NCBI GenBank assembly: GCA_951406725.2
Contig: OX597840.1
Location: forward strand, 4,712,001-4,776,000
Length of the DNA: 64,000 nucleotides
From: Octopus vulgaris
Taxonomy: Eukaryota
Direction: 5' to 3'
Both the position numbers and the translations under genes were made by a program. This document shows, piece after piece, positions 7,792 through 48,812 of this stretch; positions within the stretch are counted from its first letter, which is position 1; each line of letters begins with the position of its first letter. Under the pieces are notes generated by a model that did no database searches, was not told where the DNA came from, and saw nothing but the letters and a program-made list of their open reading frames with translations.

Positions 7792-8057
7792 ATATATATT
7801 TAACGTGGAAAATTATTTGAATATACCAAATTTGAAAATTTTGACGTAATTTTAAAATCTCCCATGTGACATGGTAGATGATGTACAACCGATAGTGTTT
7901 CTGTTTGTGGTGATGGTGCTAGCTGCTCTTGTGGTGGTATGACAGCGGCGGCTGTAGTAATGTTGAGGTGGCTAGGGTAACGATAGCGGTAGAAGTGGTT
8001 GTGATGGTGGTAGTGGTAGTGGTGGTTGTGATGTGGTATAGTTGTAGAGCTGGTTAT

Positions 8058-9490
8058 GGCGGTGATAATTGTGGTAGCAGTGGTGGTAGTAGTAAAGGTG
8101 GTTATAGCGGTGATAATTGTGGTAGCGGTGGTAGTAGTAGTAAAGGTGGTTAAAGCGGTGATAATTGTGGTAGTAGTGGTGGTTGTAGTAAAGGTGGTTA
8201 TAGCGGTGATAATTGTGGTAGCGGTGGTAGTAGTAGTAAAGGTGGTTATAGCGGTGATAATTGTGGTAGCAGTGGTGGTAGTCGTAAAGGTGGTTATAGC
8301 GGTGATAATTGTGGTAGCAGTGGTGGTAGTAGTAAAGGTGGTTATAGCGGTGATAATTGTGGTAGCAGTGGTGGTAGTAGTAAAGGTGGTTATAGCGGTG
8401 ATAATTGTGGTAGCAGTGGTGGTAGTAGTAAAGGTGGTTATAGCGGTGATAATTGTGGTAGCAGTGGTGGTAGTAGTAAAGGTGGTCATAGCGGTGATAA
8501 TTGTGGTAGCAGTGGTGGTAGTAGTAAAGGTGGTTATAGCGGTGATAATTGTGGTAGCAGTGGTGGTAGTAGTAAAGGTGGTTATAGCGGTGATAATTGT
8601 GGTAGCAGTGGTGGTAGTCGTAAAGGTGGTTATAGCGGTGATAATTGTGGTAGCAGTGGTGGTAGTAGTAAAGGTGGTTATAGCGGTGATAATTGTGGTA
8701 GCAGTGGTGGTAGTAGTAAAGGTGGTTATAGCGGTGATAATTGTGGTAGCAGTGGTGGTAGTAGTAAAGGTGGTTATAGCGGTGATAATTGTGGTAGCAG
8801 TGGTGGTAGTAGTAAAGGTGGTTATAGCGGTGATAATTGTGGTAGCAGTGGTGGTAGTAGTAAAGGTGGTCATAGCGGTGATAATTGTGGTAGCAGTGGT
8901 GGTAGTAGTAAAGGTGGTTATAGCGGTGATAATTGTGGTAGCAGTGGTGGTAGTAGTAAAGGTGGTCATAGCGGTGATAATTGTGGTAGCAGTGATGGTA
9001 GTAGTAAAGGTGGTTATAGCGGTGATAATTGTGGTAGCAGTGGTGGTAGTAGTAAAGGTGGTCATAGCGGTGATAATTGTGGTAGCAGTGGTGGTAGTAG
9101 TAAAGGTGGTCATAGCGGTGATAATTGTGGTAGCAGTGGTGGTAGTAGTAAAGGTGGTTGTAGCGGTGATAATTGTGGTAGCAGTGGTGGTAGTAGTAAA
9201 GGTGGTCATAGCGGTGATAATTGTGGTAGCAGTGGTGGTAGTAGTAAAGGTGGTTATAGCGGTGATAATTGTGGTAGCAGTGGTGGTAGTAGTAAAGGTG
9301 GTCATAGCGGTGATAATTGTGGTAGCAGTGGTGGTAGTAGTAAAGGTGGTCATAGCGGTGATAATTGTGGTAGCAGTGGTGGTAGTAGTAAAGGTGGTCA
9401 TAGCGGTGATAATTGTGGTAGCAGTGGTGGTAGTAGTAAAGGTGGTCATAGCGGTGATAATTGTGGTAGCGGTGGTGGTAGTAGTAAAGG
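8058..9490. repeat. 48-bp minisatellite, about 30 copies
   Basis: Unit gcggtgataattgtggtagcagtggtggtagtagtaaaggtggttata, highly homogeneous. Confidence 0.95.
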
Positions 9491-9959
9491 TGTTTGTAAT
9501 GGCAGAGGTGGTAGTGGCGGCGGCTGTTGAAGTAGCGGTAGTGGTGTTGGTGGCGGTGGTGATGGTAGTAGTGGTAGTGGTAGTGATGGTTGTAATGGCG
9601 GTGGATGTAGCGGTGGTGGTTGGAGCAGTAAAGCAGGTTGTGTAGACGTTGGCGATGGTAGCGGTGGTGATGGCGGTATAGTGGTAGTGGTGTCGGCGAT
9701 GGTGGTGGTAGTAGTGATGGTGGTTGTGATGGATGTGGTGGCGGCGGAAGCAATAACAGTATAGGAGGTTGTAATAGCGATGATGGCGTTGATAGTGGTA
9801 GCAGCGGTGGTAGAGGTAGTAGTGGTGGTAGTAGCGGTAGAAGTAGGTTGTGGTGGTGTTGGCGTTGATGGTGGTGGTAGCATTGTTGCTGTTTATGTTG
9901 TTGCTCGGGGTAGTGATAACGGTGGTGGTAGTGGTGATGGTGATAGTACTGATAGTGGT

Positions 9960-20390: not shown

Positions 20391-20656
20391 TGTGTGTGTA
20401 TACATACATATATATGTTTATGTGCGTACATATAAATGTATCTATATATATTTGTATGTAACTATACATTATTTGTGTGATGGTTGTCGCTATTTAAGAA
20501 TTATATACTTAACTTGATTACTTCTTTTCTGTTATAATTATCATTTTGCTTACTTTTTTCTATTTTCTTTACTATTAATATTACTACCACCGTCACCAAC
20601 CAACCAACCAACCGGTCATCAATGTCACAAAACTTCGTCTAAAAACACAAACACAG

Positions 20657-20832
20657 CTTCATTCGTCCAGCTCTCATCGGCCTCCCAAGAACAGATTCAA
20701 TGGGTGGAATCGTACAAACAGCTGAACACATCTACACGGCCCTCCTTCGAAATGGACAAAGCCTGGTTGACCATCAACAGCACCGTACACTTCGAGATTC
20801 AAATCTTTATGCAGACCACTGAGTGTTACAAA
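20657..20832 (+). CDS. HGSNAT: HGSNAT-like exon, start of luminal domain
   Basis: Reads SFVQLSSASQEQ...FEMDKAWLTINSTVHFEIQIFMQTTECYK, resembling human MDQALLLIHN...VYWKSECCYH as recalled. The gtaagt donor is at 20833 (phase 0). The acceptor is either cag at 20656 (phase 1) or cag at 20670 (phase 0). Confidence 0.8.
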
Positions 20833-21973: not shown

Positions 21974-22465
21974 GACGGGCTTCTTTCAGTTTCCATCTGC
22001 CAAATCCACTCACAAGGTTTTTGGTCGGCCCGAAACTATATTAGAAGACGTTTGCCCAAGGTGCCACGCAGTGGACTGAACCGGAACCATGTGATTGGTA
22101 AGCAAGCTACTTACCACACAGCCACTCCTGCGTCTATATATATATGTATGTGAGGACACACGACTTCGGAGTTAAGGTGTTGCACTCACGAATGAGAGAT
22201 TGTAGTTACAATTCCTAGACCGGGTGGTACGTTGTGTTCTTGAGCAAAACACTTCACCTCACGTGACTCTGCAATCACTTCGACACCTGACGGGTGACAC
22301 ACCTTGCACCCGTTTAGACAACATCGATTTGATGGAGAGAGTGAGATAATGTGCGGCACGAACATTTGGTCACAATAAACAAATTATTTGTTCAGGTCGT
22401 TCGGCGAAGGGTGAACCCTCACATGTCGTCTTCGACCGGAGAGTCTGTCATATGTGTGTGTGTGT

Positions 22466-34671: not shown

Positions 34672-34799
34672 TGTCCCCTGAATTTCAGAAAGTTGGCACC
34701 CGAGAAACAAACCACAACCATCCTTGTGTCTAGTACTACACCAATGATAATCCAACTCGCCAAAGCAGCCAATGGAAACAACGTGGAAACAATATGCAA
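34672..34799 (+). CDS. HGSNAT: HGSNAT-like exon, luminal domain
   Basis: Pyrimidine tract plus cag acceptor; reads CPLNFRKLAPEKQTTTILVSSTTPMIIQLAKAANGNNVETIC; gtaggt donor at 34800. Phase 0 to 2 links both neighbouring exons in frame. Confidence 0.85.
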
Positions 34800-37536: not shown

Positions 37537-37652
37537 CATGACTTACCATTTCTTGGAGGGAGGGGACTACTGGACCTTCATCAATTATACCAGTTATACC
37601 AACGGCTACTGCGACATACTACTGGCCAACAAACCAGTCAATCAAAATTATG
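37537..37652 (+). CDS. HGSNAT: HGSNAT-like exon, end of luminal domain
   Basis: ttgcag acceptor; reads MTYHFLEGGDYWTFINYTSYTNGYCDILLANKPVNQNY (cf. human LEYRFGEFGNYSLLV...CDLAVNEDPVDSN); gtaagt donor at 37653; phase 2 to 1. Confidence 0.88.
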
Positions 37653-45128: not shown

Positions 45129-45198
45129 CCATTTTGTTTGTATTCGGTGGTTTAATTCTCCTCGCAATCGTCTGGTCTCTCCTGAAACTTATCTACAG
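45129..45198 (+). CDS. HGSNAT: HGSNAT-like exon encoding transmembrane helix 1
   Basis: ttttggcag acceptor; 70-nt exon reading (A)ILFVFGGLILLAIVWSLLKLIY(R); gtaagc donor at 45199; phase 1 to 2. Size and phase match human exon 5 as I recall it. Confidence 0.88.
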
Positions 45199-45210: not shown

Positions 45211-45214
<4 letters not shown>

Positions 45215-45243
<29 letters not shown>

Positions 45244-46160
45244 CTTCTTCTTCTTCTTCTTCTTCTTCTTCTTCTTCTTCTTCTTCTTCTTCTTCTTCTT
45301 CTTCTTCTTCTTCTTCTTCTTCTTCTTCTTCTTCTTCTTCTTCTTCTTCTTCTTCTTCTTCTTCTTCTTCTTCTTCTTCTTCTTCTTTTCTTCTTCTTCT
45401 TCTTCTTCTTCTTCTTCTTCTTCTTTGTCTTCTTTTCTTCTTCTTCTTTTCTTTTCTTCTTCTTCTTCTTCTTCTTCTTCTTCTTCTTCTTCTTCTTCTT
45501 TTTTCTTCTTCTTCTTTTCTTCTTCTTCTTCTTCTTCTTCTTTTCTTCTTCTTTCTTTTCTTCTTCTTCTTTTCTTCTTCTTCTTCTTCTTCTTCTCCGC
45601 CTTCTTCTCCCCCTCCTCCTTCTCCACCTCCTCCTTCTTCTTCTTCTTCTTCTTCTTCTTCTTCTTCTTCTTCTCCGCCTTCTTCTCCCCTCCTCCTTCT
45701 CCACCTCCTCCTTCTCCACCTCCTCCTCCTCCTTCTTCTTCTTCTTCTTCTTCTTTTCTTCTTTTTCTTTTTCTTCTTCTTCTTCTTCTTTTCTTCTTCT
45801 TCTCCTTCTTTTTTTTTTCTTCTTCTTCTTCTTCTTCTTCTTCTTCTTCTTGTTCTTCGTCTTGTTCTTCTTCTTGCTCTTCTTGTTCTTGTTCTTGTTC
45901 TTGTTCTTGTTCTTGTTCTTCTTTTTCTTCTTCTTCTTCTTCTTCTTCTCCTCCTCCTCCTTCTTCTACTCCTACTTCTTCTTTTTCTTCTTCTCCCCTC
46001 TCCCTCTTCCCCGTCTTCTTCTTCTTCTTCTTCTTCTTCTTCTTCTTCATAACTTCGTCATTATCATATCACTTATGTCCTCCTCCTCCTTCCCCTCCTC
46101 CCCCTCCTCCTTCCCCCTCCTCCTTCCCCCCTCCTCCTCCTCTTCCTCCTTCTCCACCTC
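45215..46160. repeat. (CTT)n / polypyrimidine tract
   Basis: Pure CTT run at 45215-45387, followed by degenerate CTT/CCT. Confidence 0.95.
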
Positions 46161-46205
46161 ATGATTACGATCATCATCATCATCGATATTATTGTTTTTG
46201 TGTAG

Positions 46206-46245
46206 ATGGGTGAGTGTGGCGACGATGCCCCCCCCCAGCAATTGA
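46206..46245 (+). CDS. Candidate next/terminal exon of the HGSNAT-like gene (RWVSVATMPPPSN*)
   Basis: tttttgtgtag acceptor follows a roughly 1-kb pyrimidine-rich intron and is phase-2 compatible. Stop at 46243-46245, AATAAA at 46350. An alternative reading is a 4-nt microexon ATGG followed by gtgagt. Confidence 0.4.
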
Positions 46246-46422
46246 ATCTATTTCAAGGTTGCACCTCTTGGCAAGTGAAAACGGAACGCATGCGCAATGT
46301 GTGCTGACGTTCATAAAGATTTCTCAAGCAAGAATTGATTAAAGAAGTAAATAAATAACCTCGTACGATCCAGTTTTTCTTCGGCCTCCTGGAGAACTTC
46401 ATCTCGTCTTTGCTGGTTGCGA

Positions 46423-47073
46423 GTGAGAACCTAGAAATTGTTGACTGCTTCACGTGAGAACCTAGAAATTGTTGACTGCTTCACGTGAGAACCTAGAAAT
46501 TGTTGACTGCTTCACGTGAGAACCTAGAAATTGTTGACTGCTTCACGTGAGAACCTAGAAATTGTTGACTGCTTCACGTGAGAACCTAGAAATTGTTGAC
46601 TGCTTCACGTGAGAACCTAGAAATTGTTGACTGCTTCACGTGAGAACCTAGAAATTGTTGACTGCTTCACGTGAGAACCTAGAAATTGTTGACTGCTTCA
46701 CGTGAGAACCTAGAAATTGTTGACTGCTTCACGTGAGAACCTAGAAATTGTTGACTGCTTCACGTGAGAACCTAGAAATTGTTGACTGCTTCACGTGAGA
46801 ACCTAGAAATTGTTGACTGCTTCACGTGAGAACCTAGAAATTGTTGACTGCTTCACGTGAGAACCTAGAAATTGTTGACTGCTTCACGTGAGAACCTAGA
46901 AATTGTTGACTGCTTCACGTGAGAACCTAGAAATTGTTGACTGCTTCACGTGAGAACCTAGAAATTGTTGACTGCTTCACGTGAGAACCTAGAAATTGTT
47001 GACTGCTTCACGTGAGAACCTAGAAATTGTTGACTGCTTCACGTGAGAACCTAGAAATTGTTGACTGCTTCAC
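46423..47073. repeat. Perfect 31-bp tandem repeat, 21 copies
   Basis: Unit gtgagaacctagaaattgttgactgcttcac, with no variants seen and no spacers. Confidence 0.97.
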
Positions 47074-47343
47074 TTATGTCGGCAGTGCGATACATAGCAG
47101 CATTGGTCGCGAATCCGATCTGAAGTTTTACAAAAGACTCAGACGAGCTGGAGCAGTTGTGGACTCATTGGACAAGTGTGTTTAATAATTTAAATCATAT
47201 ACTTAATATCTTTACATAAGTTTTCATATCTAAACTAATTTACATTAGGAAATTTAAAAGTAGAGTATAACGAAACAACGTTAGAAATCTTTGGAAATTT
47301 CTCCAGTTTAAAGGACGAACTCACATTCAGCCTTCTAAAAAGA

Positions 47344-48008: not shown

Positions 48009-48812
48009 TTATTTATTGGGGAAAAATGCCTCTTTATTCAACCTTTGTTGCATTGTTGTGTCCTGTGAACATTGATGGAAGGGGAAGATTTGGAAATTGG
48101 GATTAAGATTCCTGGCACACCTTTCTATGTGTTCACTCACCTTTAAGTGTCTGTATTGTGGGTGGCGGATTTGCTCTTTGTGAATGGTGGTTCTTTGACG
48201 GAGTGAAATTCCTGTTTGTCCAATATAGAGTTTACCACATCCTATGCATGTCATGACATAGATTACATTTACCGAGGCGCAGGTGACATTTGATTTGATC
48301 TTAAATATTTCTCCTTGTTTGAATTTGAATGCTGAACCCTCCAGAAGGTGGGGGGCATGTTCCACAGTTAGTACGTCCACATTTTTACACTTTTGGCTCT
48401 GTTGTTAGTGGATACAGTCTAGCGCTGGTTAATATTTTTTTCAGTGACTTCGGTTGCTTTTTGCTTTTTATAATTTTGTATGAGCTTAAAATTTCGTTCA
48501 TTGTTTTGTCTGCTGTGAGAATGGGAAGATTTTGGGTGATGATGTTGAAGGCTTCGTTGTTTCTAGGGTTATGTGTGGAAATGTACGGGAGTATTTTAAA
48601 GTCTGGTTTAGTATTTCGGCAAGTTTTCCTTAGCATTTTATATCTATTTCCTTAGCTCTTTTAATGCCTTCATTTACTAATGAGATTGGGTAATGTATTT
48701 TAGTTAGTGTAGATCTAAGTTCAAGGAGTCTTCGTTCTCGAGTGTATATATCCGAAACTATGGTGCGGATTCTTTTCACTAGGTTAAAGGGTATGTTGAT
48801 TTTTATGTGTTT

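Follow-up and report, generated by a model that had tools for sequence, protein, structure and literature searches.

In the human genome, 7276 minisatellites are reported to derive from transposable elements (PMC9659126). Arrays of this kind can multiply a regulatory site, as described for the 33-bp VNTR of the human TRIB3 promoter, whose unit is a conserved promoter element with the transcription factor site inside it and with a shown effect on expression (PMC7425993). Small tandem duplications are reported to arise by fill-in at staggered breaks (PMC8355091). The octamer TCACGTGA is reported as the ChIP consensus of MITF, and double MITF sites as giving more-than-additive peaks (PMC7427332); the CLEAR element is described as the 10-mer GTCACGTGAC, lying in most cases no more than 200 bp from the start site (PMC6003119). 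For human HGSNAT, a review reports neither a CLEAR element nor evidence that TFEB controls the gene directly (PMC4664539); no literature on HGSNAT as a TFEB target by ChIP-seq was found, and the tables of CLEAR targets in the first TFEB publications may be relevant to this point. Here we describe a tandem array of TCACGTGA sites in the window, which is the whole stretch of 64,000 nucleotides of Octopus vulgaris DNA analysed (contig OX597840.1, positions 4,712,001 to 4,776,000). No published description of the array locus was found in the literature searched.

TRF analysis revealed that positions 46423–47073 (no strand assigned) form a perfect tandem array with a period of 31 bp, 21.0 copies, 100% matches and no indels. 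As a head-to-tail array with a unit within 10–100 bp, it is a minisatellite. The octamer TCACGTGA was found 22 times in the window, compared with a mean of 0.81 in the shuffled window. Twenty of these sites are packed in 620 bp of the array, one at each junction from 46450 to 47039 in steps of 31; the other two stand alone at 22259 and 57780 and are unrelated to the array. The original prediction had stated that neither the 31-bp unit nor either flank contains CACGTG and that every junction creates the octamer, 20 times in total, and both statements were confirmed, by inspection of the sequence and by the motif count respectively. Its suggestion of a recent expansion of identical copies also held, given the 100% matches, the presence of the motif at junctions only and the single-copy state found elsewhere. 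The junction 16-mer has 20 occurrences in the genome, all at the array locus; the duplication is therefore local and not a feature of a LINE family.

The period had further been read as about three helical turns. At 2.95 turns, neighbouring sites are indeed nearly in phase, but the phase drifts along the array, by about 326 degrees over its whole length at 10.5 bp per turn and by 132 degrees at 10.4. Near-whole-turn spacing is also common: of the 46 possible periods between 15 and 60 bp, ten deviate by no more than 0.1 turn from a whole number of turns and six are as close to one as 31 is. For both reasons, helical phasing is weak evidence for regulation.

Contigs of public sequencing runs were compared with a query of one flank plus two units, covering eight of the 24 listed runs (X4, X9 and X11–X24 lay outside the comparison); P2 runs possibly include the source of the assembly and were excluded from the independent count. 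A single copy was found in three runs: in X7 one unit reads straight into the right flank, and in X5 and X6 the fit begins at the last unit with zero depth over the junction. These three have a 12-base deletion of the right flank in common and are about 2–4% different from the assembly, and the group (X6 is labelled organism A) comes from a related species or else from a divergent haplotype. In X1, a 61-base cyclic contig has a depth of 190 versus 9.87 for the flank, giving about 19 junctions (about 20 copies), and X1 is not the assembled haplotype, because its flank allele differs from that of the assembly. The depths in X3 (single-unit word 8, junction 3, flanks 4–5) correspond to about two copies, and those in X10, labelled organism D, to about two to three (6 versus 3.9). 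Junctions were present without yielding a count in X2, at a depth of 613 with 80% of the run covered, and in X8, where one contig has a depth of 2.3. The locus is a real, young VNTR, with copy numbers of 1 (X5, X6, X7), about 2–3 (X3, X10) and about 20 (X1), these being rough contig depth ratios and not counts from array-spanning contigs. The array and the copy-number polymorphism anticipated for it were thus recovered from the run contigs. The prediction had named an assembly artefact as what would overturn it; this objection failed. An assembly artefact, in the array itself or in its length, is very improbable: perfectly identical units in a whole number of copies would suit such an origin, but contigs spanning the junction occur in five of the eight runs, from four studies, and the depth ratio of about 19 in X1 accompanies a flank allele unlike that of the assembly.

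Comparison of the left flank plus one unit with the octopus genome itself found at least five dispersed copies with 75–79% identity over query positions 158–244. All five hold the unit once, colinear with both flanks and without CACGTG, and show 61–73% identity across both flanks to the single-unit form of the locus, as is expected for a TE-derived minisatellite. The last unit and the right flank translate without stops (open frame 47024–47185), the unit encoding ENLEIVDCFT in the frame of the relic. In one dispersed copy, L002, the upstream part contains a FADD motif and a weak match to Pfam RVT_1 (E = 0.005, under the curated cut-off). Judging from the dispersed copies, the open frame and the FADD and RVT_1 similarity of L002, the array is seated in a relic, about 200 bp long, of a LINE reverse-transcriptase frame; the decayed fragment that hosts it (46367–47183, +) corresponds to the C-terminal part of the reverse transcriptase. 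By its motifs we take the element to belong to an RTE-like clade. What is new in the present analysis is the identification of the 31-bp unit as a piece of this decayed reverse-transcriptase frame.

The exons around the array were inferred to belong to HGSNAT from their order, strand and by-eye likeness. Same-strand exons 3′ of the window carry HGSNAT motifs, and one downstream exon matches human HGSNAT with E = 1e-14 and has one DNA match in the genome. A genome search with Pfam HGSNAT_cat missed the HGSNAT gene, its sole match, on C3, containing stops. The most 5′ assignable exon in the window is a HGSNAT-like exon at 20647–20832 (+), with an uncertain start and the donor AAA/GTAAGT; it was placed by order, strand and by-eye likeness, and had no match in PDB or protein databases. 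It is followed by two exons at 34672–34799 (+) and 37537–37652 (+), which by their likeness we take to encode the lumenal domain of HGSNAT, and by a HGSNAT-like exon at 45129–45198 (+), donor CAG/GTAAGC, assigned to the first transmembrane helix (TM1) by its place in the order of exons and by the catalytic exon that lies downstream. A (CTT)n-type tract at 45214–46050 (+), 97.6% pyrimidine on the sense strand, lies between the TM1 exon and the array. The array is in the intron after the TM1 exon, behind this tract of about 830 nt, and the exon ends 1225 bp before it, in agreement with the predicted distance of about 1.2 kb. The array had also been described as standing beside a lysosomal gene; the assignment of the gene as HGSNAT stands on the evidence above, but the position is inside the gene, with the most 5′ assigned exon 25.6 kb or more upstream. 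Neither the first exon nor the promoter of HGSNAT was found in the window or in the upstream sequence examined. A GC-rich open segment of 306 nt at 2162–2467 of the window (+; phase 1-1; good acceptor, donor GTAAGT) might be an exon further 5′ in HGSNAT or belong to a different gene. At 46204–46215, 200 bp before the array, a consensus donor, GTGAGT, stands four bases after a pyrimidine-rich AG.

The window contains several further repeats. About 1 kb after the array, at 48009–48800 (−), is the 3′ fragment of a Penelope-like element, with a GIY-YIG domain scoring above the cut-off (E = 2e-5). By eye, a long retroelement with a reverse-transcriptase-like frame was found at about 26.9–32.9 kb, with near-identical direct repeats of about 0.9 kb at both ends and an inverted partial copy on its 5′ side; we take this to be a Penelope-like arrangement. 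The intron of the array also holds a long LINE, presumably CR1-like, at about 53.4–57.0 kb (+), with endonuclease- and reverse-transcriptase-like frames and a CpG o/e of 0.47, and a decayed relic of a mariner-like transposase was seen by eye at about 50.9–52.2 kb. A second long minisatellite is present at 8039–9492 (48 bp, 30.3 copies, 97%), with low-complexity GT-rich units. A search of 44–51 kb against Rfam for a hammerhead or other RNA gave 48 weak matches, none of them at gathering score or on the array or relic.

Searching the whole genome for triplets of TCACGTGA spaced 16–46 bp apart gave 33 matches, of which 18 came from the array. The other 15 fall in 13 loci with 3–9 sites each in about 3 kb, and the array is the largest TCACGTGA array at this spacing in the 2.8-Gb genome. 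In a background sample of 80 spaced 10-kb stretches (0.8 Mb), we found one complex array of at least ten copies and 12 TCACGTGA. On this basis about 1.6 motif-bearing long arrays would be expected by chance genome-wide, with the wide range of 0.04–9 that follows from building the estimate on one array in 0.8 Mb. Arrays with at least ten perfect copies numbered zero in the 1.0 Mb sampled. Control motifs also form arrays: the CRE motif TGACGTCA gave 69 triplet matches, and among the 50 listed were two 13-site arrays, while CCACGTGG gave eight, among them a 26-bp array that spans about 0.9 kb. The two TGACGTCA arrays are at G000:C15:25776664-25777175 (42-bp period) and G000:C8:93193870-93194264 (30-bp period). 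The prior for a lysosomal-enzyme gene as host is roughly 0.2–1% per motif, on assumed gene numbers and sizes. The lysosomal host gene is thus the remaining coincidence, and many motif–regulon pairs would have been equally noticeable. Four loci (L037, L040, L046 and L047) contain a dispersed small element ending in TCACGTGA, in short clusters that include 8-bp tandem runs; this element is likely the source of many solo sites.

We consider it probable that the locus is a young VNTR grown from one LINE piece in an intron of HGSNAT, in which the MITF/TFEB-type words are likely accidental and have no selected function. This reading is preferred because the position and context misfit CLEAR, because about 1.6 such arrays are expected by chance and because other palindromes form arrays too. 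The original prediction took the octamer as the core of the CLEAR element. The 8-bp core, present at all 20 junctions, is indeed the MITF consensus, but the full 10-mer is absent: the junction context is T-TCACGTGA-G, without G/C outer flanks, and the only perfect GTCACGTGAC in 264 kb is about 29 kb before the window, among repeats and with no evident exon. Nor are the sites close to a start, as judged from the most 5′ assigned exon, although the gene may have an internal promoter. With neither the 10-mer nor proximity to a start, and with human HGSNAT reported to be without CLEAR, the proposed link to lysosomal regulation is unsupported. Single-copy alleles have no TCACGTGA site, because they have no junction, and a site conserved before amplification, as in TRIB3, is therefore not found. 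Against an accidental origin, selection might account for the growth from 2 to 20 copies, perfect arrays of such length are rare (none in 1.0 Mb), and no other TCACGTGA array at 16–46 bp spacing is as large as this one, which is inside a lysosomal-enzyme gene. MiT/TFE or USF-type factors may well bind the sites when they are open and unmethylated.

The array might instead be a copy-number-tunable intronic enhancer, with MiT/TFE dimers on the 20 sites cooperatively raising HGSNAT transcription in long-allele animals. We regard this as unlikely. A MiT/TFE-family gene is present in the genome, on C4, the array is unmatched in size among TCACGTGA arrays at its spacing, and the TRIB3 VNTR is reported to raise expression with copy number (PMC7425993); moreover, TCACGTGA is reported as the best site of MITF, with the more-than-additive behaviour of double sites noted above (PMC7427332). 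On the other side are the distance to the 5′ end, which is 25.6 kb or more, the lack of G/C outer flanks, the absence of the sites from the related haplotype group X5/X6/X7 and the report of human HGSNAT without CLEAR (PMC4664539). The effect of methylation on the array could go either way: octopus transposons are reported to be mostly unmethylated, but gene bodies and satellites to be methylated compartments (PMC9476566), and 5mC in the E-box is reported to lower binding in the case of MAX (PMC5389568). As a proxy for methylation, the exon CpG o/e is 0.70, compared with 0.68 for the background. A related proposal, that we see here a regulatory element at birth, in which a blunt duplication in a dead LINE would have made a MiT/TFE site, and expansion into the most populous cluster of such sites in the genome would be wiring HGSNAT into the lysosomal regulon, tunable by copy number, with alleles of about 1–2 and about 20 sites coexisting to this day, is given only a small chance.

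Two other functions were weighed. The junction, CAC/GTGAGA on the sense strand, resembles the splice donor consensus, and long alleles might favour a pseudo-exon or hold U1 snRNP. The junction turns the bases at −3 to −1 from CGA into CAC, two of the four donors in the window are also without G at −1, pyrimidine-rich AG acceptor candidates are found at 46204 and 46237, and the array is downstream of the pyrimidine tract of about 830 nt and several AGs. GTGAGA is, however, already present in the single-copy allele, and long introns contain many words that resemble donors, most of which go unused, making an effect on splicing improbable. The array had also been proposed as a decoy titrating MiT/TFE off its true targets, and it does offer twenty consensus sites within 620 bp. 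This idea fails on numbers: about 42,000 TCACGTGA are estimated genome-wide (from 12 in 0.8 Mb), the array would add about 0.05%, and since 20 sites among so many cannot titrate the factor, we give it practically no credence.

The accidental origin that we favour has a plausible mechanism of birth. The array ends without microhomology: the preceding base differs from the last base of the unit and the following base from its first, leaving a remainder of 0. By comparison, 1.0 Mb contained 21 further exact tandem duplications, a set biased towards degenerate arrays; every one of them extends at least one base past whole units, which is the pattern expected from slippage at microhomology. The zero-remainder junction is atypical among exact duplications. 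A staggered double-strand break 31 bp wide, followed by fill-in and blunt joining, would give a dimer without microhomology. With one flank base on each side, the unit reads AGTGA ... TCACT, that is, the same 5-mer on opposite strands, and symmetric nicks at this 5-mer on the two strands would make the junction palindromic automatically. The perfect dimer would then have grown by slippage or unequal exchange to about 20 copies in some alleles. Hairpin-driven slippage was considered and rejected, as none of the four stretches folds better than shuffled sequence (z −0.38 to +2.13).

The single-copy, low-copy and ~20-copy alleles make the birth series of a minisatellite visible in a clean, small example, and the array locus is a polymorphic marker. 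The locus is also a warning for work on repeat-rich genomes, where chance produces motif arrays that happen to suit the gene closest to them. Alleles with no site, a few sites and 20 sites make the regulatory-birth reading directly testable; if expression tracked allele length, the locus would be one of few documented examples in which a transcription factor site is created at repeat junctions and tuned by copy number.

Among the known systems, the array resembles the reported Alu-, B1- and LTR-derived VNTRs in that a short piece of a retroelement relic is repeated head-to-tail in variable copy number (PMC9659126). It differs from them in its host, a relic of LINE reverse-transcriptase coding sequence, in its blunt and palindromic junction, and in showing the single, low-copy and ~20-copy states together. 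With the TRIB3 VNTR it shares a unit of about three helical turns that is single copy in relatives and a multiplied transcription factor site (PMC7425993); unlike that VNTR, it has the site at junctions only, in a non-conserved TE relic deep in an intron, and it is known from sequence alone. The CLEAR/MiT-TFE regulon is matched in the 8-bp core, which is the MITF consensus, and in a host gene for a lysosomal enzyme, as these are described (PMC6003119, PMC4664539, PMC7427332), whereas the array is without the 10-mer, is neither promoter-proximal nor conserved, and is in a gene whose human counterpart is the one reported without CLEAR. Finally, the array is like the duplications reported from fill-in at staggered breaks in that a short stretch is duplicated exactly and microhomology is not required (PMC8355091). 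Those duplications are described at engineered breaks in mammalian cells, whereas the origin proposed for the octopus array is read from the anatomy of its junction and would have been followed by growth to 21 copies.
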